A program made the translations under genes and the position numbers. 64,000 nt of DNA, from NCBI GenBank assembly GCA_001790445.1, contig MGCQ01000007.1, forward strand, positions 66,608 through 130,607, given 5' to 3'. The notes beneath the pieces are model-generated. The model was given only the letters and a program-made list of their open reading frames with translations. It did no database searches and had not been told where the DNA came from. How positions within the stretch are numbered: the first letter of the stretch is position 1; every line of letters begins with the position of its first letter. This DNA comes from Candidatus Saccharibacteria bacterium RIFCSPHIGHO2_12_FULL_41_12 (GTDB lineage Bacteria > Patescibacteriota > Saccharimonadia > Saccharimonadales > 2-12-FULL-41-12). Of the stretch, positions 28,785 to 64,000 are shown in pieces.

Positions 28785-28800
28785 TCATTGATATTGTACT

Positions 28801-29157: not shown

Positions 29158-29178
29158 TGGCTGGGGCTAGTGGATGAG
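29158..29178. repeat. degenerate core-like copy
   Basis: TGGCTGGGGctagtggATGAG matches 9 + 5 nt of the core around a 7-nt interruption. Confidence 0.35.
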
Positions 29179-32835: not shown

Positions 32836-32860
32836 TTAAATATCCCTTAGGCTATACCAC

Positions 32861-33289
32861 TTATAAACTTGGTGGGGTTTGTGCTGCAACATCCGCAGAT
32901 ACTTCAGCTCTAAAAGCTTCAACCTGGTCGGCAAATTCATCGCCAAACGCACCTCGTGCGAGCTGAGTTGCCTGATAAACAGAAAACATTCGATACATTA
33001 CTGGAGGGTAATTAAGAACACTCGCAGGCATTGGTTCACCACCGAAACCGCTTACCCCTTTATTACAGTCATAGGCTAGAAGTTCAGTAGCCATAACAAA
33101 GCCCATAGGAACTACACCACCTTTAATACGGTCAGCCAAAAGAGTGGCTAAATCAACAGTAAGCCGATAGTCGCTCGTACCAAGTTCATCGCCCTCAGTA
33201 GCAACACGCTCTTGCAAGTGCGCCAAAAGCTGTTCGCCTGTTCCAACTAATCGATCTTCTTGTTCGCCACCGTTTAAATGTTCTGACAT
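32861..33289 (-). CDS. acidic hypothetical protein (142 aa), downstream partner of the 557-aa ORF
   Basis: Starts 22 nt after the stop of the 557-aa gene with AGGAGA upstream. No motif recognised. Confidence 0.5.
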   Translation of the reverse strand: MSEHLNGGEQEDRLVGTGEQLLAHLQERVATEGDELGTSDYRLTVDLATLLADRIKGGVVPMGFVMATELLAYDCNKGVSGFGGEPMPASVLNYPPVMYRMFSVYQATQLARGAFGDEFADQVEAFRAEVSADVAAQTPPSL

Positions 33290-33311
33290 ATTATCTCCTA
33301 TAAATTACTAA

Positions 33312-34985
33312 TTAAGCTGCACTTTGTTCTAGACGACTCATGTAAGTTCTAACAACAACGTCAGTTCTTTGAGTAGTAGCTTCATCAAATGGATCGCCAA
33401 CTGGTTCAACAACTATTCTGATTTTTGGTGTGTTTTTCTTACTATCGCTTGTACGTCTTACTTCTTTTGGTAGTGGACCCCAAACAGATGTACCATCATG
33501 ACCAAAGAAATTATCCAGATCAGCACTTGAGTCATAATCACGTCGTTCGGTTTCTAATATCACGCTTACGCCCGTAGCTTCGTCCTGCCATATTGCAGGT
33601 TGGCGACTACCATACTTACTGTATCGCTGATATTTTGCTTTTGGTGCATCGTCCTTATCACCTAAATAGTCTTCTAAGTAATCAGCAACGTCCTGTTCAC
33701 TCACAGGAATGCCTAATTTATCGCAAACTGCTTTTACATCTACAAAGAAGTAGCCATCGCGTTCGGTTTGGTTGACCGGAATCTCAATTGTAGCATTACG
33801 CAAACCACGCTTCATGCCTAGGGCACTAGCTAGTTGATCTTCAACTTGATCGCCTGCATAAGCAGCAGAAAGGGTTAATCCAACACCGTCTTTGGTAATT
33901 TCTACCTCGCCATTGGTTTTATGGAAGTGTCCAGCACCATCGTAGTCAAAACCAAAGTGGACGCTTTCACTGGTAGCTTTGGCTCTTTTCTTTTGTAGTT
34001 GGTTCCATTTGTCCTGAACCTTGCTAGTAATTCTATTACTAACGAACTCACGCATATCACCGCTACGAGCCGCTAACGAGAATAATGCTCCGCCTAGGCT
34101 GCCGTGTGCGTCTGCAAATGCTTTATCATTGTATTCAAGAGCGGTTTCGCCACCAGGCGTAGGGTAAGAACCGTCGCCATACATAACAAGTGCGTGCTCA
34201 AGTTGTTCAGGGTGAGCAAAGAGGATACCTTTTCTGTACTCCGAAACGTTAAAGTCGGTAATTTCCAGTTCTTTCGGGTCTAACTGCTCACGAGTTAAGG
34301 CAGAAATGCCATTCGGATTAGTCATAAGCCATTCTTCATAATTAGCCAAGTCAACAGTCATAGGTTCGCTGTCTTCACCTTGTACTTTCTGTGTACGAGT
34401 CATTTTGGCAGGAGTCTTACGACCTGCTTCATCTACTGTGTACTCAAAACGATCAGTTATTGTTGGCTCAATGTAGCCCCAAGTTAGGCGTTCTGTTAAA
34501 TAGCCTTCATTATCATAAGTAAGAAACTCTTGGTAGCGTGGGCGGTGTCTGTTGTACGAGTGTTCACCTTCAATAAGTTCAAACTTTACCATTCGTCCGT
34601 TAGCATCAAATTGATAGTTAATCCCGTCATAAAGTGGTGTGCTACCTTTAGCGTCAGTTTGTCCTTCATACGCACCAGTTGTGTATGTAAGACCTTCGCC
34701 ATCTTCCTTATAATGCCAAGGTAATCGACGTTTGTGTGGATTAGTAGCAAATATGTCGTGTATCTGGTTTTTTGTGGCTGGTTTGATAGGTTCTGAAAGA
34801 GCAGTAACGAGTTCAGGAAGAACTTCTGCCACAACTGCTTTGGTAGCCTCATCATGAAGCCTTAGAGGCCACATAGTATCACGAGGCATATTTATTTGAG
34901 GAAAGCGAGATTGAAGCGTAATAGCCTCGTCTACAAACTCACCGCCTTGAGGAAAACCTTCTGGATTTACACCTGATGTAGTCAT
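33312..34985 (-). CDS. hypothetical protein (557 aa) with a short YD-repeat-like segment
   Basis: Residues about 118-190 contain YQFDANGRMV, LTYDNEGYLTERL and FEYTVDEAGRKT, which resemble RHS/YD repeats. The rest is unassigned. No signal peptide. Confidence 0.5.
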   Translation of the reverse strand: MTTSGVNPEGFPQGGEFVDEAITLQSRFPQINMPRDTMWPLRLHDEATKAVVAEVLPELVTALSEPIKPATKNQIHDIFATNPHKRRLPWHYKEDGEGLTYTTGAYEGQTDAKGSTPLYDGINYQFDANGRMVKFELIEGEHSYNRHRPRYQEFLTYDNEGYLTERLTWGYIEPTITDRFEYTVDEAGRKTPAKMTRTQKVQGEDSEPMTVDLANYEEWLMTNPNGISALTREQLDPKELEITDFNVSEYRKGILFAHPEQLEHALVMYGDGSYPTPGGETALEYNDKAFADAHGSLGGALFSLAARSGDMREFVSNRITSKVQDKWNQLQKKRAKATSESVHFGFDYDGAGHFHKTNGEVEITKDGVGLTLSAAYAGDQVEDQLASALGMKRGLRNATIEIPVNQTERDGYFFVDVKAVCDKLGIPVSEQDVADYLEDYLGDKDDAPKAKYQRYSKYGSRQPAIWQDEATGVSVILETERRDYDSSADLDNFFGHDGTSVWGPLPKEVRRTSDSKKNTPKIRIVVEPVGDPFDEATTQRTDVVVRTYMSRLEQSAA

Positions 34986-35079
34986 AAGCGCATATAATAC
35001 TACAATATTAGATATTAGTCAATGATTTTTAGAAGTTATTTTTTGCGTTTAACAGTAGTCAAAAACGAAGTTCGGTTTT

Positions 35080-35271
35080 TTACTTCTGTTTTATATTCCT
35101 AACAGCAGCGATTGGGTCAAACTGTCCGCTTTGTACGGCGATTATATATTCGCGAGCAAGTCCACTAAGCTGGTCGATAAGTTCATCAACTTCCTCGTCT
35201 GTCATGTCTTTGGCTTCTTCGCCCATGATCTTACGAGCTTCTTCGACTGTAATTCTTGAATTAGAGTCCAT
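35080..35271 (-). CDS. small acidic hypothetical protein
   Basis: 63 aa. Overlaps the upstream DUF805-like gene by 11 nt. Confidence 0.35.
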   Translation of the reverse strand: MDSNSRITVEEARKIMGEEAKDMTDEEVDELIDQLSGLAREYIIAVQSGQFDPIAAVRNIKQK

Positions 35272-35668
35272 CGCTAAGAAAAGTTATAAATAAACCTGTT
35301 AGGTATGTCAGAAGAATAGCGATTACAACGATCAAGCCAATCCGCCATCCCTTAGCGCGAATGCCGAACATGTAGAATGCTTTGCTTGCATGTTCCGGCT
35401 TGCTAGGAGCAAAAAGGGCGTATGGCAGTAACAGGATTGTCGTCGGTGGAATTAACGCGAGTGTCCACCAACCGCTATGTCCGGTGTTTCGCAGTCGCCG
35501 AGCCGTCCAGATTATGATCGGAATAACGAGTATGAGGCTCAGTGGTTTTGCAAAGCCAGCAATAAACTCATCACTTCCGGCAACAGTATTGCAGAGCGCA
35601 AATGTTGGAAAAACAAACAGCATGGACGCTGTATATGATTTTGCATTCATGGTTGATACTTTTTTCAT
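35261..35668 (-). CDS. DUF805-like inner membrane protein
   Basis: ARRLRNTGHSGWW matches the DUF805 signature (RRLHD.G.SGWW). Three or four TM helices. AGGAGG SD. Confidence 0.6.
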   Translation of the reverse strand: MKKVSTMNAKSYTASMLFVFPTFALCNTVAGSDEFIAGFAKPLSLILVIPIIIWTARRLRNTGHSGWWTLALIPPTTILLLPYALFAPSKPEHASKAFYMFGIRAKGWRIGLIVVIAILLTYLTGLFITFLSDGL

Positions 35669-35915
35669 TCGGCCTCCTACTTGTTAAAAAGAGGCCAATT
35701 AAAAAAGGACAACCTCTCTAGATTGTCTAGACCAACACAGGTTGTAACCTATGCTTTCGAGAAGTTGCCCATTTTTGGTTACAACCAATCGAATATGATT
35801 GGGCTTTACAAGCCGTGTTGATCTAGACCCCTTAATCATATCAAGAAATGCTGTGAAAAAGGACTACTGTTATGAAATAACTGGACGAAAAACTATAATC
35901 ATTAACAGGTAAGTT

Positions 35916-36419
35916 ATGTCAAAACAGCATATATCTGATGAGGTGAAGATAGTTGAGATGCCGCAACAAGTGGCAGAAGCTCTACATGCTCAAATAATTG
36001 AAACAAAAAACATAGCTCTTGATTTAAAGAATCAGCTCGAGAAGATGCAAAACGATTTAAATACCGTAAAGAATATTGTCAAATCGACAAGTATTAGCAG
36101 GTCGGCATGGGTAAGGCTTAGGTATAATAAACGGCTTAGCGAGATAGTTGTTTCTGGGTATTATATTATGAAGTTCGAGAGTACCTTAGAGGGCGAACTA
36201 CTCCGTTACATGTTCACTAAGCGTGGCAAACCTTTAGATGACCGTTTTCAGTACTCCGAATTCATCAAGGAATTCAAGATAGCAGGCATAGAAAAATTAC
36301 ATAGTGCCAGAGCAATCAGTAAGATCGCATACAATTTAAGAGATCGATTCAGGAAAGAACTTGGGTACGATCAGCTACATGTTGACGCAAAAGAGTTCTA
36401 CTGGTTAAACGTACGCTAA
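35916..36419 (+). CDS. putative transcriptional regulator with C-terminal OmpR/CadC-like winged helix
   Basis: Coiled-coil N-terminus. The C-terminal pattern GELLRYMF..GKPL...ISKIAYNLRDRFRKEL...FYWLN resembles trans_reg_C wHTH domains. Confidence 0.45.
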   Translation: MSKQHISDEVKIVEMPQQVAEALHAQIIETKNIALDLKNQLEKMQNDLNTVKNIVKSTSISRSAWVRLRYNKRLSEIVVSGYYIMKFESTLEGELLRYMFTKRGKPLDDRFQYSEFIKEFKIAGIEKLHSARAISKIAYNLRDRFRKELGYDQLHVDAKEFYWLNVR

Positions 36420-36565
36420 CAGATGTAATTCTTGTCTGTATCTAATTCAGACAATGCTTTTGCTTTAATGCGTTTATGCAGGACAAGCCAAGTCAATTAA
36501 GCAAGTCAGAACTAGAGGCACTAGTTCAATTTTCCTGCTACTTGCAGAAATTGAAAGGTATGTAG

Positions 36566-37105
36566 ATGACATCTAGAAAATCAAATCAAACTAAAGGATT
36601 GCGACCAATGCAGCTCCGCTTTTTTAGTATGTTAGGAATGGAGAAGCCGAAGCCGATCCCGCCACAGCTAGCCCTAATATATGGATTTCCCCTAGCAGGG
36701 ATTATTTCTCAGCTACTATTTTGGTGGGGTTTAGAAAAAAGAGATGACGGGTTCATCTTCAAGACTGAAAAGGATTTTATATCAGAGCTCGGCATCACAT
36801 CAGCTCAGCAAAGGTTAGCAATAAAAAAAGGTAAAAAGCATGGTTTCCTTACTGTTAAGAGAATGGGCGTACCAGCAAAGAGGCATTACAAAATAGATTT
36901 TGATCTATTGGTCAAAACTACAATAAAAGAGGCTGCTGAAAAGAAAGTCACTTTGTCTATTAGCCATTACAATAACCGCGAAAAGGCCATGTCGCCTAAC
37001 GGTCAAAATAGCAGAACTACTACAGAAAGCACTCCAGAAAGCACGACTAGAAAAGGAAGTACTTTATCCACAGCCGACATAATAGCTAAGAAAATGGTAG
37101 AATGA
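36566..37105 (+). CDS. hypothetical protein, possible wHTH/replication-organiser-like
   Basis: FKTEKDFISELGITSAQQRLAIKKGKKHGFL looks like an HTH. Ser/Thr-rich tail. Assignment is weak. Confidence 0.4.
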   Translation: MTSRKSNQTKGLRPMQLRFFSMLGMEKPKPIPPQLALIYGFPLAGIISQLLFWWGLEKRDDGFIFKTEKDFISELGITSAQQRLAIKKGKKHGFLTVKRMGVPAKRHYKIDFDLLVKTTIKEAAEKKVTLSISHYNNREKAMSPNGQNSRTTTESTPESTTRKGSTLSTADIIAKKMVE

Positions 37106-37241
37106 AAAAGCTTTTCCGGTTTAAAACTATATCGCAGCGATTTTTTATTTCTGCTCTTAATGGGCGGTTGTGTTCAGAAAGACGCTGCAAAGTTGTTGGA
37201 CTGGAAAAGCCACAACCGTCCATTTTTAGTTAAGGAGTTTC

Positions 37242-38765
37242 ATGAAGGCAATAATATTGGCGAGAGTATCGACCAAAGACCAAGAGGATAACAACTCTAT
37301 ACCATCTCAAACACGCCGTCTTCATGAGTACGCTGAAAAGTTCGAACTTATTGTTCTCGAGACTTATCAACTCGTAGAATCCTCGACTAAAGCAAACCGC
37401 CGAAAGTTTAACGAGCTTATTAATCGAATAAGAGAATCTGATGAGAAAATAGCACTTATCGTAGATACGATTGATCGCTTGCAAAGAGATTTTCGCGAGT
37501 CGGTCATGTTAAATGAGCTACGACTTGAGGGCAAAATTGAGCTTCACTTTGTAAGAGAGAATCTGATTATCAATCAGGTATCGAACAGTGCGGATATTCT
37601 CCGTTGGGATATGGGGGTAATGTTTGCAAAAAGCTATGTAACCCAGCTAAGTGATAACGTCCGCCGTAGTTTTGAGCAAAAGCTGAAGAATGGCGAGTGG
37701 CTGGGAAGAGCACCGTTTGGCTATAGTAACGAAGACACGCCCGAGGGTAAAAAATCGATTGTGCCTGAACCAACACAGGCAAAGATAGTGGGAAGCATGT
37801 ACCAATGGTACGCAACTAGCTCATATTCTATGAAAGAGATTCGCAAGAAACTTATTGAAGATTACGGTCTAATCAAGTCTGTTAGCAATATAGATAAGAT
37901 CTTAAAGAATCCCTTTTACTATGGCGAGATGAAAATAAAGAATGAGTTGTACCCTCATAAGTACGAGCCTGTAATTACCCGAGGTATCTTCGATCAAGTC
38001 CAAGCTGTAAAAATCGGATTCAACAAGAAAGCTTTTAAGTATGCTGGAATCCCTTATTACTATCGAGGCCTAATGCAATGCGGCGATTGTGCTTGCAGTA
38101 TTACGCCAGAAAAGAGCAAAGGGCATACTTATTATCATTGTACGCAGTATAAGGGCAAGCACGGGGCTGCATATTTGCGAGAGGAAGACCTAACCGAGCA
38201 GTTGATGGTTGCTTTTGAGGCTATCAAGCTAACACCAGAACAATATGATGAAGTAACGACAGTTCTAAAAACCGTACATAAGGATAAGGTTAAATACAAA
38301 GCCCAGCATGTGGGGCATTTGCAAACAGAGCTAACGAAGTATCAGCAACGCCTTGAGAAATTATATGAATCGCACCTTGATAATGATATAGACCCAGAAT
38401 TCTATAAACGAAAGGCTATTGAATACAGGTCTACTCGTGATGCTATCAAGACAAAGCTAGATGCCACCGATAGAGCCGATGACGATTTCTATTTTGCAGT
38501 TGATGGGCTAATTCGAATGGCTCAAAGAGCACCTGAATTACTGGCACGTTCTGAAATGGAGCATAGGAGACGGCTTATTAACTTGGTACTTCAGAACCTT
38601 ACGGTCAAAGACAGAGAACTTCGGTGGGAGTACAGAAAACCGTTCGATACATTGTACCGAACGGCTAAAACTTCAAATTGGCTGGGGATGAGGGATTCGA
38701 ACCCCCGATGGCGGAACCAGAATCCGCTGCCTTACCACTTGGCCAATCCCCATCGACAAGAGTAA
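37242..38765 (+). CDS. large serine recombinase (integrase); the integrated form has its 3' end extended through the antisense of the tRNA
   Basis: Resolvase catalytic N-terminus AIILARVSTKDQ, a recombinase domain, a Cys-rich zinc ribbon (CGDCACS...YYHCTQY), and a coiled-coil region. The last 29 codons are antisense of tRNA-Gln. Confidence 0.9.
   Translation: MKAIILARVSTKDQEDNNSIPSQTRRLHEYAEKFELIVLETYQLVESSTKANRRKFNELINRIRESDEKIALIVDTIDRLQRDFRESVMLNELRLEGKIELHFVRENLIINQVSNSADILRWDMGVMFAKSYVTQLSDNVRRSFEQKLKNGEWLGRAPFGYSNEDTPEGKKSIVPEPTQAKIVGSMYQWYATSSYSMKEIRKKLIEDYGLIKSVSNIDKILKNPFYYGEMKIKNELYPHKYEPVITRGIFDQVQAVKIGFNKKAFKYAGIPYYYRGLMQCGDCACSITPEKSKGHTYYHCTQYKGKHGAAYLREEDLTEQLMVAFEAIKLTPEQYDEVTTVLKTVHKDKVKYKAQHVGHLQTELTKYQQRLEKLYESHLDNDIDPEFYKRKAIEYRSTRDAIKTKLDATDRADDDFYFAVDGLIRMAQRAPELLARSEMEHRRRLINLVLQNLTVKDRELRWEYRKPFDTLYRTAKTSNWLGMRDSNPRWRNQNPLPYHLANPHRQE
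38679..38752 (-). tRNA. tRNA-Gln (anticodon CUG), CCA encoded
   Basis: Hand-folded minus-strand sequence: TGGGGAT TG GCCAAGTGGTAAGGC A GCGGA TTCTGGT TCCGC CATC GGGGG TTCGAAT CCCTC ATCCCCA G CCA. It has a 7-bp acceptor with U1-A72 (typical of bacterial tRNA-Gln) and a TTCGAAT T-loop. Confidence 0.9.
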
Positions 38766-38812: not shown

Positions 38813-38951
38813 AAAGTATCAAGAGTGTAGAGAGGGATCTAGCCCGACGACCTACCAGCAACCCTTTCAGTTGGGTGCTAAATCTAGTCCTGCATGCAGG
38901 AAAGATATGAAGAACTCAAATCCTTTCTTGCAAACCCAGGAGGAAGGATAT
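38813..38951 (+). promoter_or_regulatory. SAM-I (S-box) riboswitch with SD-sequestering hairpin, controlling metK
   Basis: UAUCAAGAG...GAGGGA...GCCCGACGA...GCAACC...GGUGCUAAAUC...AAAGAUA matches the SAM-I core. ATCCTTTCTT (38920-38929) can pair with GAGGAAGGAT (38940-38949), covering the metK SD. Confidence 0.85.
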
Positions 38952-38955
38952 TTTT

Positions 38956-40065
38956 ATGCCAACAATAACAAAGAAAACCAGCGAATCTGTCTGTGCGGGG
39001 CACCCAGACAAGATCGCTGACCAAATCAGCGACGCCATAGTCGACGAGGTGCTTAAGCGTGACCCAAATGGTCGCACAGCCGTGGAGACTCTAGTTGCCA
39101 GAGACAGAGTAGTCCTAGCGGGGGAGGTCAATACAACTGCAAAGGTAGATTTTGTATCCGTAGCACGTGAGCAGATCAAAAGACTTGGTTACACAGATCC
39201 ATCGTGGGGCTTCTCTGATGAATCTGTAATAGATAATCATATCCACGCTCAATCACCAGAAATATCCGTCGGTGTCGATGATTTCGGAGCAGGCGATCAA
39301 GGCATAATCTACGGCTACGCTACTAACGAGACAGACAAATATTTGCCCACGCCGATAGCCATTGCCCACGACTTGACCAGAGCTATAGACACCGCCCGCG
39401 AATCTGGTGTAATGCCACATCTACGGCCAGACGGCAAAGCGCAGGTAGTGATCAAATATATTGATAACAAACCATCCAAAGTAGATCACGTGACTGTCGC
39501 CGTGCCACACGATCCGCGTCTGTCACTGGCCAAAATCCAAGAAGATTTACTCAAGCATGTGATTACACCAATCTTGGGGAAGTATGGTTTTAACGTGCCA
39601 AAAAACGGGTTAGTGGTCAATGGCACAGGTGTCTGGCATACCCCTGGCCCTAAAAGTGATGCGGGGCTGACCGGTCGCAAGATTGTGGTTGATGGCTATG
39701 GGGGATTAGCCCATGTTGGCGGTGGAGCCTTTAGTGGCAAAGACCCCAGCAAAGTCGACAGATCAGCAGCCTATGGTGCGCGTTATATTGCCAAAAACAT
39801 CGTTGCCAAAGGGCTGGCGGACGAAGTGGAGATAGGGCTGTCGTATTTTATCGGAGCCAAAGAGCCAGTGCAATTTTCTATTGATACATTTGGCACTAAC
39901 AAAGTTCCAACCGACAAAATCCGCGCATTTGCAGTCAAATTACTCAATCCATCAGTTAAAAACATCGTTGAAACCCTAGATCTCAAAAGACCAATTTATT
40001 TGCAAACCGCCTCCTACGGCCACTTTGGTAGAGAAGAATTTCCTTGGGAAGTAATAAAAAAATAG
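38956..40065 (+). CDS. metK: S-adenosylmethionine synthetase
   Basis: GHPDKIADQISDAI, GAGDQGI and GGGAFSGKDPSKVDRSAAY signatures. Confidence 0.97.
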   Translation: MPTITKKTSESVCAGHPDKIADQISDAIVDEVLKRDPNGRTAVETLVARDRVVLAGEVNTTAKVDFVSVAREQIKRLGYTDPSWGFSDESVIDNHIHAQSPEISVGVDDFGAGDQGIIYGYATNETDKYLPTPIAIAHDLTRAIDTARESGVMPHLRPDGKAQVVIKYIDNKPSKVDHVTVAVPHDPRLSLAKIQEDLLKHVITPILGKYGFNVPKNGLVVNGTGVWHTPGPKSDAGLTGRKIVVDGYGGLAHVGGGAFSGKDPSKVDRSAAYGARYIAKNIVAKGLADEVEIGLSYFIGAKEPVQFSIDTFGTNKVPTDKIRAFAVKLLNPSVKNIVETLDLKRPIYLQTASYGHFGREEFPWEVIKK

Positions 40066-40099: not shown

Positions 40100-40129
40100 C
40101 ATACTTTCTTGTGTTGACAAGAAAGTATG
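40100..40129. repeat. 13-bp perfect palindromic hairpin (copy 1), shared with 63972-64000
   Basis: CATACTTTCTTGT-gttg-ACAAGAAAGTATG. The same stems with a different loop (gcta) occur at the window end. Confidence 0.7.
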
Positions 40130-42050: not shown

Positions 42051-42204
42051 CCTTGTCCTGCTTTCTGGCATAGCCAGAAACTCTGACAAGTCTCTTGGCA
42101 TAGAATAACTTTTTCTTCTGCGGTATTCACCTACACGGTACCATATGTACGGCTTGCTCCATTCCTCAAAGAGAAAAGTTATTCTATACTCAAGTGTGAA
42201 GGTT
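42051..42204 (+). repeat. about 150-bp structured intergenic repeat, copy 1 (after the helicase gene)
   Basis: Mostly identical to 47018-47169 outside a divergent centre, by manual alignment. Internal hairpins are TTCTGGC/GCCAGAA and a stem of about 20 bp (catagaataacttttt / aaaagttattctat). Confidence 0.8.
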
Positions 42205-47017: not shown

Positions 47018-47169
47018 CCTTGCCTGACTTCTGGCAGAGCCAGAAACTCTGACAAGGCTCTTGGCATACAATAACTTTTTCTTCTGCGGTATTCACTTCA
47101 CCGTATTGTAGATACGGCTTGCTCCATTCCTCAAAGAGAAAAGCTATTCTATGCTCAAGTGTGAAGGTT
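47018..47169 (+). repeat. about 150-bp structured intergenic repeat, copy 2 (after typA)
   Basis: See 42051-42204. Same orientation, and it begins 19 nt after the typA stop. Confidence 0.8.
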
Positions 47170-51927: not shown

Positions 51928-52581
51928 ATGCCTGGCAGAAACGTAATAAAACAATTTGAACCAGATGCTGCCTATCATATATATAACAGAGGTGTCGATA
52001 AGAAGATAATTTTTCTAGATGAGCGCGACTATGCTGTTTTTTTAAGTTTGCTCAAGTATACTATTATCCAAAAAGATGATCAATTCGATAATTCGTTAGT
52101 CTCAGAGGCCCAGCGATATAATTTTCGTCGCCTCAACTTGGCTGAGTCGGTTGATCTTCTTGCATACTGTTTAATGCCTAATCATTTTCACCTGTTAGTA
52201 TATCAGCACAGTGAAGACGGTATAACTAAAATGATGCGTTCTGTAGCCACGGCGTACAGCATGTATTTCAACAAAAGATATAAGCGCTCCGGAGCATTAT
52301 TCCAAGGTCGTTATAAAGCAAGTCGAATTCATAGTGACAGTTACTGGCAACATATAAGTAGATATATCCACCTTAATCCACTTGATGTAGGCGATAATTA
52401 CAAGTCATATCCTTATGGAAGTTTTAAAGCATATTCCGGCGAAATAAGTGTTGAATGGCTGAATACTGACATGATTCTCGGTAATTTTAGTAGTGTCAAA
52501 GAATACGTTAAATTTCACGATGACTACATCCCACGCAGAAAAGAGCTTCTTGATGTTAAAGAAATGCTAGCAAATTTTTAA
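51928..52581 (+). CDS. IS200-like Y1 (HUH) transposase, REP-associated tyrosine transposase (RAYT) type
   Basis: YHIYNRG, the HUH motif MPNHFHLL, and catalytic Tyr context SRYIHLNPL. No TnpB partner. Flanked by related hairpins. Confidence 0.85.
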   Translation: MPGRNVIKQFEPDAAYHIYNRGVDKKIIFLDERDYAVFLSLLKYTIIQKDDQFDNSLVSEAQRYNFRRLNLAESVDLLAYCLMPNHFHLLVYQHSEDGITKMMRSVATAYSMYFNKRYKRSGALFQGRYKASRIHSDSYWQHISRYIHLNPLDVGDNYKSYPYGSFKAYSGEISVEWLNTDMILGNFSSVKEYVKFHDDYIPRRKELLDVKEMLANF

Positions 52582-52592
52582 CGAAACATCAT

Positions 52593-52613
52593 GTACAAGG
52601 ACGTTCCTTGTAC
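52593..52613. repeat. REP-like palindromic hairpin downstream of the RAYT gene
   Basis: GTACAAGGA-cgt-TCCTTGTAC shares the GTACAAG...CTTGTAC core with 51891-51915. Confidence 0.7.
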
Positions 52614-52675: not shown

Positions 52676-53695
52676 ATGAATGATAGTAAAATTAAAGAGG
52701 TAAAAGATCTGTTGATCGTCCGTTTTGAGAAAGACAAAAATGTAAATATTTTGCGTGCAAAAGAGCTTAAAGAACTTTATGGTATTTTGCCTACTCTACC
52801 AGAAGATCAGAGAGCCGCTTTTGGTCAATCAATCAATAAGTTAAAAAATGAGTTAAAGGAATTAATCAGCAATACCCAAAACAAAGCAGAAGAAAAACCG
52901 CTAATTGACGTAACTGCACCGATTGATGTAAATGCCCAAAAACCAGAGGTTTTATCAGCAACTATTGGATCTGTTCACCCGATAATGCGAGAAATTGCCA
53001 AGATCAATGATATTTTTTCAAAAATGGGCTTCGAAATCTGGGAGAGTCGTTATATTGATGATGATTACCATATGTTCACTAGTCTGAATTTTCCAGAAGA
53101 CCACCCAGCACGCGATGATTACGACACATTTATAACAGAGGAAGGCTTGATAGCCCCAGCGCACACTAGTACTATGCAAAATAGGATATACAAAGCCAGG
53201 AAAAAGCAGCTTGAATCAGGTCAGCCGATTGCTGCTATAGTTACAGATAGAGTGTTCCGCAACGAAGATCTGGATGCTAGGCACGAGCACACTTTTTACC
53301 AGTGTGAAGGTGTCTATGTAGCAAAAAATGTCAATGTCGGTAATCTAATAGCCACATTAGAAGAGTTTTTATCCAGTTATTTTGGTAAAAAGGTAGAGAG
53401 TCGAGTTAATCCATTCTATTTCCCTTTTACCGAGCCAAGTTTTGAATTTTCACTGAGCTGCCCATTTTGCGACAAAAAGGGTTGTCATATCTGTTCACAG
53501 GCTGGTTGGATTGAGTTGCTGGGTTGCGGCATGATCCATCCGAATGTTTTGAGTGAAGGCGGAATAGACCCATTAGTTTATAGCGGATTTGCATGGGGGC
53601 TTGGCATAGAGCGGCTGATTATGATGAAGTATGGCATAGAGGAAATTCGTCATTTTCATAGTGCAAAATTAGATTTCTTGAGGCAATTCGCATGA
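52676..53695 (+). CDS. pheS: phenylalanine--tRNA ligase alpha subunit
   Basis: Class II motifs FRNEDLDARHEHTFYQCEG and GFAWGLGIERL. Confidence 0.95.
   Translation: MNDSKIKEVKDLLIVRFEKDKNVNILRAKELKELYGILPTLPEDQRAAFGQSINKLKNELKELISNTQNKAEEKPLIDVTAPIDVNAQKPEVLSATIGSVHPIMREIAKINDIFSKMGFEIWESRYIDDDYHMFTSLNFPEDHPARDDYDTFITEEGLIAPAHTSTMQNRIYKARKKQLESGQPIAAIVTDRVFRNEDLDARHEHTFYQCEGVYVAKNVNVGNLIATLEEFLSSYFGKKVESRVNPFYFPFTEPSFEFSLSCPFCDKKGCHICSQAGWIELLGCGMIHPNVLSEGGIDPLVYSGFAWGLGIERLIMMKYGIEEIRHFHSAKLDFLRQFA
53660..53695 (+). repeat. pheS 3'-end / ATGA junction sequence, copy 1 (native)
   Basis: agtgcaaaattagatttcttgaggcaattcgcATGA. The last 23 nt are identical to 54173-54195. Confidence 0.85.
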
Positions 53696-54195
53696 CAAAA
53701 AATATTCAAATTGTTGATGACGTTGACGAGCTTATAGGGCATAAGAAACGTGATGAAATTGATTACACCAAAGATACTTATCGCTCAAGTGCATTGTGGA
53801 TTATAAATTCTCGGGGCGAAGTACTGATAGCCCAAAGAAAGACAACAAGAGACAAAGATCCCGGGAAATGGGGTCCGTCCGCAGCGGGGACAGTAGAAGA
53901 AGGTGAAACCTACGACACTAACGTGTACAAAGAGGCAAAAGAGGAAATTGGGCTTAGTGGCTACACATTCAAGAAACTAAAAAAAGAAAAAATAGATAAG
54001 CCCCGATCGCAATTTGTTCAATGGTATGGGGCTGTTGTTGATGAACCAATAGAATATTTTACTGCTCAGCTAGACGAAGTAGAACAACTAAGCTGGGTCA
54101 AAGAAGAAGAGTTGCTCGATGATGTTTCAAAAAATCCAGACAAATATGTATTTCTTATGATCAGTGCACTAAATTTCTTGAGGCAATTCGCATGA
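53692..54195 (+). CDS. NUDIX hydrolase (inserted between pheS and pheT); C-terminus encoded by a copy of the pheS 3' end
   Basis: Nudix box GTVEEGETYDTNVYKEAKEEIGL. Ends SALNFLRQFA versus SAKLDFLRQFA for pheS. Confidence 0.8.
   Translation: MTKNIQIVDDVDELIGHKKRDEIDYTKDTYRSSALWIINSRGEVLIAQRKTTRDKDPGKWGPSAAGTVEEGETYDTNVYKEAKEEIGLSGYTFKKLKKEKIDKPRSQFVQWYGAVVDEPIEYFTAQLDEVEQLSWVKEEELLDDVSKNPDKYVFLMISALNFLRQFA
54163..54195 (+). repeat. pheS 3'-end / ATGA junction sequence, copy 2
   Basis: agtgcactaaatttcttgaggcaattcgcATGA. Confidence 0.85.
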
Positions 54196-54635
54196 AAAAT
54201 GCAAAGAAGATTGTGATTGCAGGTGATCATTATGCTGTTGAACTGGTTGCAAAAATAGAAGACTACCTGGCACAAAAAGAAATAGAATTTGAAAATATGG
54301 GATCGCATTCGTCTGACCAAAAGCTTGCTTTGCAAGAAATGATCCCGTCTGTAGTAAACAAAGTTTCTAGTGAGGCGGATGGTATTTTAGTGTGCGGAAC
54401 AGGCGTTGGTATTGAGATTGGCGCGAATCGATTTAAAGGTGTTAGGGCGTCACTTTGTGTTTCTCCAAGGACAGCCGAAAATGCTCGAAAATACGATAAT
54501 GCGAATGTACTGTGTCTAAGTGCGTGGGAAACAAATAATCCAGAAGACATTCTAGATGCCTGGTTTGATTCTGAGTATGATGGCAACACAAAACGTCTTG
54601 AAATGCTCGAAGAATTCGATAGGTGGGCAAAATGA
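54192..54635 (+). CDS. rpiB: ribose-5-phosphate isomerase B (RpiB/LacAB family)
   Basis: GILVCGTGVGIEIGANRFKGVRA and NVLCLSAW match RpiB. Confidence 0.85.
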   Translation: MKNAKKIVIAGDHYAVELVAKIEDYLAQKEIEFENMGSHSSDQKLALQEMIPSVVNKVSSEADGILVCGTGVGIEIGANRFKGVRASLCVSPRTAENARKYDNANVLCLSAWETNNPEDILDAWFDSEYDGNTKRLEMLEEFDRWAK

Positions 54636-54673
54636 AGTTAAGTGCAGAAATTATATTGAGGCAATTCACATGA
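54632..54673 (+). repeat. chimeric junction: pheT 5' codons (ATGAAGTTAAGT) fused to pheS 3'-end copy 3; forms a 13-codon linker ORF
   Basis: atg aag tta agt gca gaa att ata ttg agg caa ttc aca tga translates to MKLSAEIILRQFT*. Its first 12 nt are identical to the pheT start (55330-55341). Its tail is 18/19 identical to the pheS end. Confidence 0.8.
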
Positions 54674-55011
54674 AACAAGTTACAAAAATATCAGTTGACG
54701 AACTCAAAGACATGGCCAAGAGAATGTATGCGCCAATTGTCAAAGCAGTCGTCGACGTAAATAATGGATGCGTTGTTATTGACGCAGAAATGCATGTGGA
54801 CGAGGAGCAATATCAACTCGAACAAGGCTCACAACAAGTAGATTTATGGGGGATCAATCTGCATCCGCATGAATATGGTACAGACAATTTTATTGAATAC
54901 GATTCTATGATAAACATTCGCCCAAGTCAGAATAATCCATCCCGCAGCGTCCATGATGAGAAAATTCGGCAACGTGTAGATGAAATTATTGCAGGGGTTG
55001 TCTATGAATAA
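54670..55011 (+). CDS. hypothetical protein (113 aa)
   Basis: I prefer the ATG at 54670 (an ATGA overlap with the linker ORF). The track start at 54556 lies inside rpiB. Confidence 0.5.
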   Translation: MKQVTKISVDELKDMAKRMYAPIVKAVVDVNNGCVVIDAEMHVDEEQYQLEQGSQQVDLWGINLHPHEYGTDNFIEYDSMINIRPSQNNPSRSVHDEKIRQRVDEIIAGVVYE

Positions 55012-55333
55012 TTATAAAATTGACCGCAGGCGATGGGCAAAGATGGACATTCAGAACCAAATGGGCAATATTGGCTCGGAGGTTGGCAGAGCAATTATTG
55101 CAAAGCGTGAGGGCAACGAAGAACGTTTTGAAGGGGCACTACGTAGGGCATTGGACCTATTTAGTGCGACTACGGAAGTTTTGATTGAGCAAAAATCCCC
55201 CCGAGCCCGAGAAGTTTTGCGAGCAAAAGACCAATTCCTGCGACTATTTTTTGATGGAAAGTTTGAAAGCGATGCAGATAATATCGATAGGTACTTCTAC
55301 CAGTTTGCACTAGCAGCGAGGTCCAAAAAATGA
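55004..55333 (+). CDS. hypothetical protein (109 aa)
   Basis: ATG at 55004 with AGGGG 7 nt upstream. It overlaps the previous stop (ATGAATAA), and its own stop overlaps the pheT start (ATGA). Confidence 0.5.
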   Translation: MNNYKIDRRRWAKMDIQNQMGNIGSEVGRAIIAKREGNEERFEGALRRALDLFSATTEVLIEQKSPRAREVLRAKDQFLRLFFDGKFESDADNIDRYFYQFALAARSKK

Positions 55334-57780
55334 AGTTAAGTCTTAATATTTGTCAAGAATTTAGTAGTGTTGATCTTAAAACGCTTTCAAAAGATCAATT
55401 AATTGAAAAGATCAATCAACAGATTGGAGCAACTGAGGAAGTTATTGATCTCGGTGCACAGTACCAAGGCGTTTTAGTAGCTAAAATTGTGTCCTGCGAG
55501 AAACATCCAGATGCTGACAAACTAAGTCTATGCAAAATAGATGATGGCGGAGCCAACAAGCAGGTTGCACGAGATGCCAGTGGCTATGTGCAGGTAGTTT
55601 GCGGAGCGCCAAATGCCCGCGAAGGCCTGATTGTAGCTTGGATCCCGCCTGGGGTAGTTGTGCCAAGTACTGTCAACAAAGATCCTTTGACTTTGGAAGC
55701 TAGAGAAATACGTGGACAAGTCAGCGGTGGCATGCTTGCTAGTGAGAGTGAGCTGGATATTAGTGGTGAGCACACAGGCTTGTTAGAAATTAATGCTAGC
55801 GACGAAGGCGAGGAATTAATCCATCCTGGTACTGAATTTAAAAAACTCTACGGACTTGATGATCTTGTTTTTGATGTAGAAAACAAGATGTTCACCCATC
55901 GCCCTGATCTTTTTGGACAATTGGGGCTAGCGCGAGAACTGGCAGGAATTCAGGGACTAAAATTCAATTCCCCAACCTGGTATACAGAAAATGTTAAATT
56001 CAAAGACGCCGAGAATTCGCTTGTCGTAGAAAATCAAATCCCCAAGCTCTGCGCCCGATACATGGCTGTTGCGCTGGACGGTATCAAAGTCGGTCCTAGC
56101 CCTACCTGGCTGAAAAGCAATCTACACAGACTAGGTATTCGACCAATCAATAACGTAGTAGATATCACCAACTATATGATGATTCTGACCGGTCAGCCCA
56201 TGCACGCATTCGACGCAGACAAAATATCTGGCAAGATTATCATCAGAAACCCCAAAAAGGGTGAAAAAATGACCCTGCTTGATGGCAAAGAGATAACGCT
56301 TGACACTGGGTCCATCTTGATTGCGGATGAGCAAAAACCAATAGCTCTTGGTGGTGTGATGGGGGCAAAAAACTCTGAAGTCAGCAAATCTACAACTAGA
56401 ATAATCGTTGAATGCGCTAATTTTGACATGTTTAACATTCGACGTAGCTCAATGCATTACGGGATTTTTAGTGACTCTGTGACGAGATTTACAAAAGGCC
56501 AGTCTCCCCGTCAGTGTGCAGCCGTGCTGTCTCAATCTCTCGGACTTTTTGAACAACTAACCGGTGGCAAACAAGCCAGTGATATTTGTGATGAATATGT
56601 AGTGCCAGCCAAACCAGCAAATATCGACGTAAAATTAGTTAATGAGTCGCTTGGCACAGATTTGTCGGATACAGACGTCGCCACAATACTCAATAATGTA
56701 GAAATCAATGTAGCCGCAGGGGGCAGGGGGCAACAAGTTCAGCCGCCATTTTGGCGCACAGATCTAGAAATTTATCAGGATATTATCGAGGAAGTCGGTC
56801 GGCTTTATGGATTTAACAAATTGCCAAAATCTCTACCAAGCAGAACCACCACGCCACCGATAACCAACAAAGAAGTTGAGCTTAAAAAGAATCTGAGACA
56901 AGCATTGGCGAGCTTCGGTGCAAACGAAGTTCTAACATATAATTTTGTCCATGGAAACTTACTGACCAAGGCAGGGCAGACACCGGAAAATTCATACAAA
57001 CTTCGCAATGCACTGTCCCCCGATCTAGAATATTATCGTCAGACAATTACCCCAAGTTTGTTGGACAAAGTTCACCCAAATATCAAATCCGGACACGACG
57101 AATTTGCCCTGTTCGAAATAGGCAAATCTCATAACAAAGTACATAGCAAAAAAGATGAAGTACCCCAAGAGCTTGATATGCTGGCTATGGTTTATGCTAA
57201 TAAAAAGCCAGCAAAAACAGATGGATCAGCATACTTTCAAGCCAGAAATTATCTTGATCAATTAATGGCTTCGTTTGGGCTCACCCTAGAGTACAAAACA
57301 GTCGGTGACGACATGATATTTCCCGTAACTGCTCCTTTTGATTTTAAAAGATCAGCACTGGTAACTACCAAAGAAACTAAGACGTTTATTGGCATTGTCG
57401 GTGAGTACAAACAAGAAGTTGCCAATGGCTTTAAGCTCCCAGATGTCTCAGCAGGATTTGAAATTGGCACTGCTCATATTTTAGAAGCGCTAGGCAAAAA
57501 AACCGACAGTGGTTACAAACCGCTTGGTCGTTATCCTTCCACGACGCAAGATATAACCACCAACGTTGCTGGCGGCATAAGTTACCGCGAAGTATTTGAA
57601 ACGATTAATGCCAAACTAACAGCGTCTGACTATGACTACCAGATATCACTGGTCGGTATTTATCAACCTAACAAAACTAGTCAAAAAAACATCACCTTCA
57701 AAATCACATTGTCGCGACCGGACAGAACCCTAACCACAGAAGAAGTGAACATATTGACACAATCCCTAGTTGACTATTAG
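55330..57780 (+). CDS. pheT: phenylalanine--tRNA ligase beta subunit
   Basis: 816 aa with an N-terminal tRNA-binding (OB) domain, B3/4, B5 and a C-terminal FDX-ACB-like domain. Confidence 0.95.
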   Translation: MKLSLNICQEFSSVDLKTLSKDQLIEKINQQIGATEEVIDLGAQYQGVLVAKIVSCEKHPDADKLSLCKIDDGGANKQVARDASGYVQVVCGAPNAREGLIVAWIPPGVVVPSTVNKDPLTLEAREIRGQVSGGMLASESELDISGEHTGLLEINASDEGEELIHPGTEFKKLYGLDDLVFDVENKMFTHRPDLFGQLGLARELAGIQGLKFNSPTWYTENVKFKDAENSLVVENQIPKLCARYMAVALDGIKVGPSPTWLKSNLHRLGIRPINNVVDITNYMMILTGQPMHAFDADKISGKIIIRNPKKGEKMTLLDGKEITLDTGSILIADEQKPIALGGVMGAKNSEVSKSTTRIIVECANFDMFNIRRSSMHYGIFSDSVTRFTKGQSPRQCAAVLSQSLGLFEQLTGGKQASDICDEYVVPAKPANIDVKLVNESLGTDLSDTDVATILNNVEINVAAGGRGQQVQPPFWRTDLEIYQDIIEEVGRLYGFNKLPKSLPSRTTTPPITNKEVELKKNLRQALASFGANEVLTYNFVHGNLLTKAGQTPENSYKLRNALSPDLEYYRQTITPSLLDKVHPNIKSGHDEFALFEIGKSHNKVHSKKDEVPQELDMLAMVYANKKPAKTDGSAYFQARNYLDQLMASFGLTLEYKTVGDDMIFPVTAPFDFKRSALVTTKETKTFIGIVGEYKQEVANGFKLPDVSAGFEIGTAHILEALGKKTDSGYKPLGRYPSTTQDITTNVAGGISYREVFETINAKLTASDYDYQISLVGIYQPNKTSQKNITFKITLSRPDRTLTTEEVNILTQSLVDY

Positions 57781-62192: not shown

Positions 62193-63304
62193 TCACAAAA
62201 CAAGACATTTCAGCAGTACTGAGCAAATATAACAAAAATGAAATAACAATAGCTACGCTTGGCGGGCACAGTGCGCTGGATGTTTGCCGTGGGGCTCATG
62301 ACCAAGGTTTTAGAACACTTGTTGTGGCTCAGAGAGGACGCCACGAAGTCTACGAAAAGCATTACAAAACTAACGGAGATTTAGGCTGTGTTGACGAAGT
62401 ATTAGTTGTTGATAATTTTAAAGATGTGACTAGCGAGTCTGTCCAAAAAGAATTAGTTGCCCGGAATGCAATATTCATCCACAGCAGATATTTCTGGGTC
62501 TATTGTGATTATGATCAGGTAGAAAGTAACTTTTTGGTACCGATATTTGGCAACAGAATTTTGGTCAAAAAGGAAGAACGAGATGAAACGCAAAATCAAT
62601 ATTATTTGCTAGAAAAAGCTGGGATCAAGTTACCAAAGCAATTCGCTAACTACAAAGATATTGATACTTTAGTGATTGTAAAGGCGAACGAGAAAGAGCG
62701 AAGTTACGAAAGAGATTTCTTTCTAGTTGGTAGTCCACAGGAATACGAGTCGGAGATGATTAAACGCTTTGGAAACACATTTATTGAACATTCTCCAGTT
62801 ATAGAAGAATTTGTAGTTGGTCCAATGGTCAACTTGAATTTCTTTTATTCTGGTGTTGAAAAACGTCTTGAGCTGATGGGTACAGACATAAGGCGTCAGA
62901 CAAACATCGACGGACTTTTGCGACTAACAGCTCCAGAGCAAGAAAAAGTATTACAAAAAGTCCAACCAAAATATATTGAGAACGGACATATTGCAGTGAC
63001 GGTCAAAGAGTCATTGCTTGGTAAAATTTATGAACTTGGTGAGCAATTTGTAAAGGCTGTGGACGAGGTCTATCCTCCTGGGATGATCGGCCCGTTTGCA
63101 CTGCAAGGTGCGGTTACTGCAGGACCACCGACGGAAGAAATCTATATTTTTGACGTAAGTATGCGAATCCCGGGAAGTCCGGGCACAATGTTTACCCCAT
63201 ATTCAGGGTACATGCATGGTCAGCCCATGAGCTACGGCAAAAGAATAGCCGTTGAAATAAAAGAAGCCATTAATCAAAACAAATTAGAAGAAATAGTAAC
63301 ATAA
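62189..63304 (+). CDS. purP: PurP-family ATP-grasp protein, copy 2 (tandem paralog)
   Basis: ITIATLGGHSALDVCRGAHDQGF, FLVPIFGNRILVKKEER, GMIGPFALQG and MSYGKRIAVEIKEAI. ATGA overlap with copy 1. Confidence 0.85.
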   Translation: MITKQDISAVLSKYNKNEITIATLGGHSALDVCRGAHDQGFRTLVVAQRGRHEVYEKHYKTNGDLGCVDEVLVVDNFKDVTSESVQKELVARNAIFIHSRYFWVYCDYDQVESNFLVPIFGNRILVKKEERDETQNQYYLLEKAGIKLPKQFANYKDIDTLVIVKANEKERSYERDFFLVGSPQEYESEMIKRFGNTFIEHSPVIEEFVVGPMVNLNFFYSGVEKRLELMGTDIRRQTNIDGLLRLTAPEQEKVLQKVQPKYIENGHIAVTVKESLLGKIYELGEQFVKAVDEVYPPGMIGPFALQGAVTAGPPTEEIYIFDVSMRIPGSPGTMFTPYSGYMHGQPMSYGKRIAVEIKEAINQNKLEEIVT

Positions 63305-63820: not shown

Positions 63821-63929
63821 GGGCACGATGGTTACCCCATATTCAGGGTACATGCATGGTCAGCCCATGAGCTACGGTAGTAGAATCGCCATAGAAATGA
63901 AATCAGCGATTGACCAAATTGTAACGTAA
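63821..63929 (+). pseudogene. displaced 3'-terminal fragment of purP copy 2
   Basis: 63821-63877 matches 63181-63237 at 55/57 nt. The continuation is a diverged homolog (SRIAIEMKSAIDQIVT* versus KRIAVEIKEAINQNKLEEIVT*). No upstream ORF body. Confidence 0.75.
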
Positions 63930-63971: not shown

Positions 63972-64000
63972 CATACTTTCTTGTGCTAACAAGAAAGTAT
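63972..64000. repeat. palindromic hairpin copy 2 (cut by the window end)
   Basis: CATACTTTCTTGT-gcta-ACAAGAAAGTAT. Stems are identical to 40100-40129. Confidence 0.65.

Follow-up and report, generated by a model that had tools for sequence, protein, structure and literature searches.

Copies of the pheS tail among gene cassettes at the pheS-pheT junction of a Saccharibacteria genome: a candidate recombinase-independent hotspot

The displacement, or 'orphan', arrays of Rhs, CdiA and type VI secretion system (T6SS) genes consist of a constant upstream gene followed by variable modules. Recombination anchored in the conserved part brings in new modules and pushes older ones downstream, and short remnants of the 3' region of the conserved gene precede the displaced modules. 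Homology-facilitated illegitimate recombination is a proposed mechanism for the T6SS effector-immunity arrays and for the Rhs arrays (PMC5361080). Here we analysed a 64,000-nt stretch of DNA, hereafter the window, from Candidatus Saccharibacteria bacterium RIFCSPHIGHO2_12_FULL_41_12 (assembly GCA_001790445.1, contig MGCQ01000007.1, positions 66,608 to 130,607). In the window, the two genes of phenylalanine--tRNA ligase, pheS and pheT, are separated by genes for a NUDIX hydrolase, a ribose-5-phosphate isomerase B (RpiB), a DUF5674 protein and an unnamed protein (unk2), as well as by a 13-codon linker open reading frame (ORF), with copies of the 3' tail of pheS between them (Table 1). We consider it probable that the pheS-pheT junction is a recombinase-independent hotspot, at which cassette alleles have been joined by microhomology-mediated illegitimate recombination. 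For comparison, 80 loci from species-representative genomes, 80 loci from metagenomes and the contigs encoding the closest PheS proteins were collected (designated by L numbers below).

Displacement arrays are the closest analogues of this locus. Unlike in these arrays, the constant genes encode both subunits of an essential aminoacyl-tRNA synthetase, and downstream, too, the flank is a conserved and essential gene, pheT. Furthermore, the modules are ordinary small enzymes rather than toxin/immunity pairs, and the remnants are only 17-36 nt long and apparently kept as translation-coupling signals. Hotspots of horizontal transfer flanked by core genes are a more general concept. Many small variable segments are bordered by short direct repeats of <30 bp, for which illegitimate or homology-assisted recombination has been invoked (PMC2884548). 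Similarly, the gene content at the pheS-pheT junction differs between close relatives, and short direct repeats lie at the borders. In contrast with such hotspots, the site does not lie between genes but within an operon, in a 4-nt gene overlap, and all inserts are co-oriented, promoterless and linked into a chain through stop/start codon overlaps.

Integron arrays also consist of ordered, promoterless, co-oriented small genes that follow an upstream platform, with a short repeat at their boundaries, but the repeat at the pheS-pheT junction derives from part of a protein-coding gene. No IntI-type recombinase was found beside the array: the Pfam matches of the genes at 51.9-57.8 kb are limited to Y1_Tnp, PheS, NUDIX, RpiB, DUF5674 and PheT, and no integrase is annotated beside pheS in the related loci examined. 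attC-like sites are missing, as the genes overlap and leave no spacer, the tails contain no hairpin and none of the junctions showed inverted repeats. Insertion is not directional as at an attI site, since families occur in either order (F1-DUF5674-unk2 in L003, DUF5674-unk2-F1 in L118).

Integrative elements that target the 3' ends of tRNA or protein genes are flanked by a direct repeat of the target 3' end, and the window harbours such repeats at the far borders of inserts, as a 23-nt exact and a 33-nt diverged copy. However, the known elements have their own recombinase and fixed att sites, whereas no recombinase was detected among NUDIX, RpiB, DUF5674 and unk2 using Pfam, NCBIfam, PHROGs and PADLOC, the limits of the repeats vary between loci, and each insert is a single gene. 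As for the IS200/IS605 family, the cassette ends have no hairpins, and this family does not make duplications of 17-36 nt. An earlier note on this DNA had stated that no recombinase lies nearby. This is literally wrong, as an IS200-like Y1 transposase ORF is found directly upstream of pheS, but the joints do not fit Y1 transposition. This ORF is absent from all examined relatives with cassettes, and absent between yajQ and pheS in L182-L186. Thus, it is a lineage-specific insertion that is not implicated in the cassette joints.

In compact operons, termination-reinitiation at ATGA relies on a Shine-Dalgarno sequence located in the coding region of the preceding gene, ~8 nt upstream of the ATG that overlaps the TGA. 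The junctions of the pheS-pheT interval have the same layout. What differs is that gene insertions have come with copies of the coupling element itself, and that in two or three loci it sits in a relic mini-ORF whose apparent sole role is to pass ribosomes on. Full-text searches of a collection of papers retrieved no earlier description of the pheS-pheT cassette arrangement. The unusual features here are the 4-nt overlap in an essential synthetase operon, the ordinary-enzyme cargo, the remnants that double as coupling modules and the relic mini-ORFs.

Copies of the pheS tail and the linker ORF in the window

The 23-mer ATTTCTTGAGGCAATTCGCATGA, which forms the end of pheS with the ATGA overlap, occurs exactly twice in the window, at 53673-53695 and 54173-54195, and was not found in any of 100 shuffled sequences. 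Three occurrences of its core TTGAGGCAATTCRCATGA were counted, one of them at 54656-54673 in addition to the two above, against an expectation of 0.10, a number that none of the shuffles attained. The third copy is more diverged; its upstream limit is AGTGCA at 54641, and relative to the pheS tail it has a net indel of 3 nt. Immediately before it, AAAATGAAGTTAAGT is identical at 15 of 15 positions between 54629-54643 and the start of pheT (55327-55341). The earlier note had described the exact repeat, the diverged third copy and a copy of the first four pheT codons; all three are borne out. The linker ORF is indeed a chimera, as proposed, with codons 1 to 4 of pheT fused at AGT to the last ~10 codons of pheS. 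Its start overlaps the stop codon of rpiB and its stop overlaps the start of the DUF5674 gene. No further pheS-tail copies were found in the 64-kb window.

Tail 1, the native end of pheS, is conserved nearly to the nucleotide in relatives, because it encodes the PheS ...L(D/E)FLRQF(A/S) end and the GAGG motif before the next start. Tail 2 provides the stop codon of the NUDIX gene, as well as the Shine-Dalgarno sequence and ATGA start of rpiB. The C-terminus of the NUDIX protein from SALN onwards had been attributed to pheS. However, NUDIX homologues (57-67% identity) end with ...PDKYVxSMxxALxFL followed by 2-5 variable residues. Thus, the ...SALNFL segment is native to NUDIX, and only FLRQFA and the stop codon (~23 nt, ~6 codons) are pheS-derived. 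The crossover between the NUDIX gene and the tail appears to have fallen in the fortuitously similar F-L codons of the two genes. Two other readings of tail 2 were discarded. AGTGCA cannot be the left boundary shared by all three copies, as the S/K-A-L-x-F-L segment is native to NUDIX, and taking the ATGATC of tail 2 for a decayed pheT head would need an additional frameshift, a deletion and a substitution.

Copy 3 has a different history from tail 2. Together with the start of the DUF5674 gene (TTGAGGCAATTCACATGAAACAAGT), it forms the same junction as that between pheS and DUF5674 in eight relatives. In these, the pheS tail-ATGA-AACA(A/G)GT... sequence runs straight into DUF5674, and the DUF5674 and unk2 genes directly follow pheS through a tail-ATGA-MKQV junction. 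DUF5674 is paired with unk2 in L003, L005, L008, L011, L015, L045, L098, L099 and L118, and in the loci compared unk2 is always accompanied by DUF5674. Thus, DUF5674 and unk2 form one unit, which was once directly after pheS, where the earlier note had counted two unknown genes. Nor does copy 3 represent a further scar of the same kind; the comparison with the eight relatives indicates that it is the old pheS/DUF5674 junction, displaced downstream and now preceded by 12 nt of pheT. We also considered that the DUF5674-unk2 unit might be ancestral in this lineage, but the closest relatives do not have it, and it is better seen as resident when the NUDIX and RpiB genes arrived.

The RpiB cassette has native ends at both termini. 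That rpiB is followed by the first four codons of pheT points to an earlier state with rpiB directly before pheT. Its closest homologues (61-66% identity) adjoin ychF rather than pheS and have a C-terminus of the type ...EEFD(K/G)WAK-stop. Among Saccharibacteria, they are found in L175 (4001-4441), L178 (1379-1819) and L179 (2752-3192), where rpiB is divergent beside ychF. Thus, the rpiB gene of the window has been relocated or re-acquired into the pheST operon. As a test of relocation inside the genome, ychF was sought in the window and was absent from it. Searches of Pfam, NCBIfam, PHROGs, PADLOC and PDB yielded no match for unk2, and PHROGs, PADLOC and PDB sequence searches gave no clue to the function of DUF5674 and unk2.

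Cassette turnover among relatives and co-occurring strains

We counted the loci with more than 150 nt between pheS and pheT as occupied. Among the 145 Saccharibacteria loci that hold both genes, 51 are occupied, with 215-3,795 nt between the two genes, and in the other 94 pheS and pheT overlap or nearly so, mostly through the same ATGA. The intervening ORFs belong to at least 15 families. PNPOx-like proteins are the commonest, and the others include Ser_hydrolase, NUDIX, DUF5674 with unk2, HIT and ASCH/DUF3850 proteins, a four-helix protein similar to those of 23S-rRNA intervening sequences, a PemK-like protein, a 79-aa membrane protein and a reverse transcriptase. On the PheS tree, the distribution of the cassettes is patchy. 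The nearest relatives, with 75-84% PheS identity, have yajQ upstream in common and show at least five interval states, including the empty one. Among the loci compared, the four-gene set of the window was found in its own species only. Thus, the relatives differ in the presence, identity and order of cassettes, in line with the proposal that the junction has been reused for gene acquisition.

In L001 (7982-8540), L186 (6012-6594), L187 and L036 (7996-8955), a reverse transcriptase gene directly follows pheS. That of L036 codes for an IGNLTSQ motif typical of diversity-generating retroelements, and those of L001 and L186 run into (CAGT)n or (CAGA)n microsatellites where the contigs end. In those genomes, the stop codon of pheS is TAA or TAG and not part of an ATGA overlap.

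Copies of the pheS tail at cassette boundaries are present in at least eight loci (L002, L003, L008, L011, L015, L118, L188 and the window). The TTTTTGAGGAAGTTCGTATGA tail of the L188 NUDIX gene has at most one mismatch to the pheS tails of its clade. The fusion of a NUDIX gene to a pheS tail is thus found twice, in the window and in L188, which belong to different clades. We searched each locus for its own 17-nt pheS tail, with up to two mismatches. Seven matches were found after pheS, six of them in 37 kb of pheS-pheT intervals and the seventh in L002, whose contig ends before pheT; elsewhere in ~3.3 Mb, there was one low-complexity match only. In a control with 1,990 ORF tails, from a sample of ~1.7 Mb centred on pheS, the tails that recur within 3 kb downstream were those of pheS (five loci), the pheS-derived NUDIX tail and that of one unrelated gene. 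The latter, in L061 (1733-1749 and 1979-1995), is the sole non-pheS gene of this sample whose last 17 nt recur exactly within that distance. Moreover, three of 3,805 non-pheS ORFs end in a pheS-type tail, and all three are inside a pheS-pheT interval. The copies usually carry the lineage-specific variant of the resident pheS tail, being exact in the window, L008 and L002 and 1 nt off in L003 and L015, among ~80 distinct tails. They therefore appear to have a local or within-lineage origin and not to have been imported with distant donor DNA. These data agree with the claim that duplicates of the junction mark joins.

The arrangement did not arise in assembly. Nine samples contain contigs with 99.2% or more identity to the window over the region (ERZ4903070, ERZ27254756, ERZ27254767, JGI 3300025323, ERZ28563803, SRR2090157, ERZ27254752, ERZ4903055 and ERZ27254845), and the same structure was obtained in different studies and with different assemblers. 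Single contigs extend from pheS to pheT (L081, L083) and hence span the three copies, or from NUDIX to pheT (L088) and span copies 2 and 3; the stretch from RpiB across the linker to unk2 or pheT is contained in L087 and in five contigs of lesser length. Two contigs do break inside tail copies (L084 ends at 53694, L082 at 54189), as might be expected of collapsed or chimeric reads. However, the L082/L087 break corresponds to a 141-nt overlap, the k-mer length, where two strains diverge, and the L084/L088 break is probably a short-k-mer repeat collapse at low coverage. We thus regard the chance that the repeats arose in assembly as negligible.

The contigs also point to strain mosaicism. In sample ERZ27254756, the window-matching contig L082 ends in copy 2 and L087 overlaps it by the 141 nt mentioned (k141 in the contig names). 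The co-occurring strain represented by L087 differs from the window at 16 sites in 54190-54311 (54190, 54191 and 14 more), then is identical for 4.7 kb. This block has the features of a recombination tract from a donor ~13% divergent, with its left edge inside tail 2. The co-occurring strains L088 and L093, otherwise identical to the window, have 25 substitutions in 278 nt of pheT (55820-56097) and 6 in 14 nt of unk2 (55110-55123), which similarly look like mosaic recombination tracts from donors ~10% divergent. Overall, the mosaic tracts of co-occurring strains show 9-13% divergence, and recombination thus appears to be ongoing in the population.

Table 1. Features of the pheS-pheT region of the window, and interval contents and tail copies at related loci. 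Gene identities at 51.9-57.8 kb are from Pfam and NCBIfam.
Feature or locus	Positions	Strand	Evidence or description
IS200-like Y1 transposase ORF, 217 aa, in yajQ-pheS gap	51928-52581	+	Pfam Y1_Tnp, E=4.8e-12
Perfect 9-bp hairpin	52593-52613		GTACAAGGA-CGT-TCCTTGTAC, 3' of the Y1 transposase ORF
pheS, alpha subunit of phenylalanine--tRNA ligase	52676-53695	+	TIGR00468, 257.9 bits (above its cut-off); Pfam tRNA-synt_2d
Tail 1, native pheS 3' tail	53660-53695	+	AGTGCAAAATTAGATTTCTTGAGGCAATTCGCATGA, encodes SAKLDFLRQFA-stop; GAGG 8 nt before next ATG, plus ATGA overlap
NUDIX hydrolase cassette	53692-54195	+	Pfam NUDIX, E=1.3e-14
Tail 2, exact 23-nt pheS-tail copy	54173-54195	+	0 mismatches
RpiB (ribose-5-phosphate isomerase B) cassette	54192-54635	+	Pfam LacAB_rpiB, E=8.7e-31
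pheT-start copy, with first four pheT codons	54629-54643	+	AAAATGAAGTTAAGT, joined at AGT to tail 3
13-codon linker mini-ORF	54632-54673	+	MKLSAEIILRQFT-stop; sequence reading, ORF listing
Tail 3, diverged 33-nt pheS-tail copy	54641-54673	+	AGTGCAGAAATTATATTGAGGCAATTCACATGA
DUF5674 gene, first half of DUF5674-unk2 unit	54670-55011	+	Pfam DUF5674, E=2e-31
unk2, gene of unnamed 109-aa protein	55004-55333	+	without database match
pheT, beta subunit of phenylalanine--tRNA ligase	55330-57780	+	Pfam B3_4, tRNA_synthFbeta, B5, tRNA_bind, FDX-ACB
L182 (84% PheS identity)			pheS-Ser_hydrolase-pheT; yajQ upstream and trehalase gene downstream, as in window
L095 (84% PheS identity)			PNPOx-like gene after pheS
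L184 (81% PheS identity), L185 (77%)			pheS and pheT adjacent, no cassette
L001, L186, L187 (75-76% PheS identity)			reverse transcriptase gene after pheS
L002, L003			C-terminus of PNPOx-like protein turned into ...MRQFS-stop / ...LRQFV-stop
L008			five-codon relic ORF MRQFS-stop
L011			unk2 ends with ...AARMRQFK-stop
L015			13-codon relic ORF MKHGKQNSLRQFS-stop, from ATGA to next ATGA
L188			NUDIX gene (66% identical) ends with ...ALEFLRKFV-stop (TTTTTGAGGAAGTTCGTATGA); then HIT gene, then pheT

Joints, probable translational coupling and competing explanations

Three types of joints were found at the tail copies. In the window, pheT codon 4 and a Ser codon of pheS share an AGT microhomology of 3 nt. 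In L002, L008, L011 and L118, TGA(G) (3-4 nt) is shared between an ATGA junction and the TTGAGG of the tail, which yields ATGAGGCAATTC. Lastly, in the window and L188 the joint falls in the F-L codons (~7 nt) of NUDIX ...ALxFL and PheS ...KLDFL. The left limits of the tail copies vary (17-36 nt). The tails do not form hairpins, their folding being no better than that of shuffled sequences (z +0.5 to +1.6), and the junctions have no inverted repeats. Altogether, these features argue for illegitimate, microhomology-mediated joining rather than the action of a site-specific enzyme. They match homology-facilitated illegitimate, or Campbell-type, recombination, with the pheS (or pheT) flank as the homology side and 3-7 nt of microhomology at the other joint. 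A dedicated recombinase is thus not required for the pattern, as had been suggested.

From these observations we infer the following pathway and order of events. Alleles of the type pheS-X-pheT with different X genes would be swapped by ordinary homologous recombination in the conserved flanks, which alone would be enough to make the site a hotspot. In occasional exchanges, one side would be homologous and the other illegitimate, so that either X, at its 3' end, or pheT, within its first codons, would be joined to the last 17-36 nt of pheS of another allele. This might take place by homology-facilitated illegitimate recombination after natural transformation or, equivalently, by circularization of a fragment at a microhomology followed by a single crossover in the tail. 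In cultivated Saccharibacteria, natural competence has been demonstrated (PMC10633639), and a single crossover of a circularized fragment duplicates the region of homology (PMC3240628). Either route would generate pheS-tail-X-(pheT head)-tail-Y-pheT, as in the window, where the NUDIX and RpiB genes would have been placed upstream of the resident DUF5674-unk2 unit. Small promoterless genes could thus be gained, swapped and joined end to end at the junction. As pheT is essential, selection would keep only the joins with a Shine-Dalgarno sequence and an unbroken stop/start relay. Such selection would limit the scars to C-terminal fusions, as in NUDIX, in-frame ATGA-to-ATGA mini-ORFs or very short spacers, and it would account for copy 3 having kept its reading frame despite internal indels.

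The features of the interval are those of a coupled operon, with stop/start overlaps, Shine-Dalgarno sequences within the upstream coding sequences and no internal terminator. Each tail carries GAGG 8 nt before the ATG of the ATGA overlap. No terminator-like sites were detected on the + strand between the start of pheS and the last 150 nt of pheT, nor did an Rfam scan reveal a T-box or other RNA leader at pheS. The chain of ATGA overlaps from pheS to pheT is not as unbroken as first described: five junctions are 4-nt ATGA overlaps, but DUF5674 and unk2 overlap by 8 nt (ATGAATAA). The C-terminal AAR(S/R).. codons of unk2 provide the GAGG motif for the next gene. ATGA overlaps are uncommon in the window, at ~5 of 48 same-strand junctions, three of which belong to the pheS-pheT region. 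The tail copies thus probably keep the downstream genes translated, and they may persist because they carry the Shine-Dalgarno sequence and ATGA restart signal of the next gene. Through the retained tails, every cassette and finally the essential pheT could stay translationally coupled.

Several points weigh against this interpretation. Coupling and translation of the mini-ORFs are predictions from sequence. Concerted evolution by gene conversion could also account for the match between the copies and the resident tail. Many loci with several cassettes, among them L021, L073, L125 and L045, have clean ATGA joints and not a single tail copy, and hence tail duplication is not obligatory. The first capture of a gene that had never been next to pheS, such as rpiB, would presumably need joints at both ends, with only ATGA shared. 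No donor alleles of the pheS-RpiB-pheT or pheS-NUDIX-pheT types were found among the fetched loci or by exact-protein look-ups, and all assemblies of the window's species have the same fixed arrangement. Lastly, the evidence for competence comes from cultivated Saccharibacteria and not from the organism studied here.

Other histories can be proposed for the locus. The junction itself may have been duplicated in tandem before any cassette arrived: slippage or unequal exchange would have copied a ~42-nt unit, which starts with the AGTGCA of the pheS tail and ends with codon 3 of pheT, to give pheS-tail-miniORF-tail-pheT, and cassettes would later have been inserted at each ATGA. The mini-ORF would then be older than the cassettes and not a scar left when two alleles were joined. 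Tandem duplication would produce precisely such a new joint, of a pheT head with a pheS tail behind it, and both the 15-nt identity of the head copy and the match of the tail copies to the resident tail are in keeping with it. So is the lineage-specific AGT Ser codon present in all three window copies, versus AGC in the relatives with 84% PheS identity, which points to an event within the genome or lineage. Nevertheless, several more insertions would have had to land exactly at ATGA, and an empty duplicated junction (pheS-miniORF-pheT) was found in no relative. Neither the position of DUF5674 directly after the pheS tail in eight relatives without mini-ORF nor the NUDIX-tail fusion at the F-L codons, repeated in L188, would be explained. 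We consider this scenario rather unlikely. In another, an old multi-gene operon would have been reduced by gene loss in most lineages, the gene ends being alike through the need for a Shine-Dalgarno sequence and ATGA. The recurrence of PNPOx-like, Ser_hydrolase, NUDIX and DUF5674-unk2 genes at the locus in distant clades would fit, as would the C-terminal codons of unk2 and DUF5674 doubling as GAGG motifs. However, convergence cannot produce a 23-nt exact identity that includes unconstrained positions, and the first four codons of pheT are copied without change amid the array. The replaced C-terminus of NUDIX, the RpiB homologues at another conserved locus, the five or more states, including the empty one, among relatives with 75-84% PheS identity and the patchy distribution on the PheS tree also point against this history, which we hold to be very improbable.

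It is also conceivable, if improbable, that the pheS tail is the attachment site at which a dedicated but unrecognized system of site-specific recombination inserts circular cassettes, be it integron-like, dependent on a recombinase of the tyrosine or serine type provided in trans, or driven by the neighbouring Y1 transposase. The same short sequence borders cassettes in several lineages, the cassettes are all co-oriented, the Y1 ORF is directly upstream of pheS and a large serine recombinase is encoded elsewhere in the window. Such a system would not readily account for the variable left limits and the differing microhomologies at the joints, for tails without hairpin or inverted repeat, for the absence of intergenic room for attC-like sites or for a cassette order that is not directional. 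In addition, the Y1 gene is missing from every relative examined, and neither the rest of the window nor 3.3 Mb of related loci contains the tail. We thus favour microhomology-mediated joining of cassette alleles at the pheS-pheT junction.

Other features of the window and significance

The pheS-tail pattern had been likened to that at the tRNA-Gln gene of the window (38679-38752, minus strand). The likeness is superficial, as the tRNA-Gln site adjoins a large serine recombinase gene, whereas the pheS tails have neither recombinase nor hairpin. That gene (37242-38765, plus strand) codes for 507 residues with Resolvase, Recombinase and Zn_ribbon_recom domains and overlaps tRNA-Gln. Partial copies of the tRNA 3' end are found ~10 kb away, at 28794-28834 and 28966-29006, and the region from 28794 to 38765 is probably an integrated element of ~10 kb. 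A 1067-aa ORF in this region weakly matches a pPIWI-associated nuclease. Beside this locus, an S-adenosylmethionine (SAM) riboswitch (38813-38911, + strand; Rfam RF00162, 49.1 bits, above the gathering score) precedes an ORF at 38956-40065.

Several other repeats are present in the window. A 29-nt palindrome (CATACTTTCTTGTGTTGACAAGAAAGTAT) at 40100-40128 recurs at 63972-64000, 24 kb apart, with 93% identity; it resembles repetitive extragenic palindromic (REP) sequences, and a relationship to the Y1 transposase-family gene is conceivable. A ~150-nt direct repeat is found at 42057-42204 and 47023-47169 (88-93% identity, 5 kb apart), the second copy being between a BipA-like GTPase gene and fur. 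Lastly, the 98-nt segments at 63181-63278 and 63821-63918 (86% identity, 640 nt apart) probably represent two paralogous coding segments.

The pheS-pheT locus shows how tiny, operon-dense genomes may gain and shuffle genes without mobile-element machinery, by splicing them into the overlap of two essential, coupled genes and duplicating the coupling signal. It also accounts for some odd C-terminal extensions and tiny ORFs in annotations. If the pattern is general, copies of an upstream-gene tail, sometimes with a relic mini-ORF, would be a signature of gene flow in uncultivated Patescibacteria. More tentatively, the 4-nt pheS-pheT overlap may be an integrase-free cassette platform in Saccharibacteria and perhaps in small-genome Patescibacteria, the pheS tail serving both as a microhomology handle and as a portable Shine-Dalgarno/ATGA restart module, and the mini-ORFs as ribosome relays. 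If so, this would represent a functional analogue of integrons that arises from general recombination and selection for coupling, with accessory genes expressed by riding an essential operon. Independently of this reading, the pheS-pheT junction is a natural site for foreign-gene expression in those Saccharibacteria that are now genetically manipulable.

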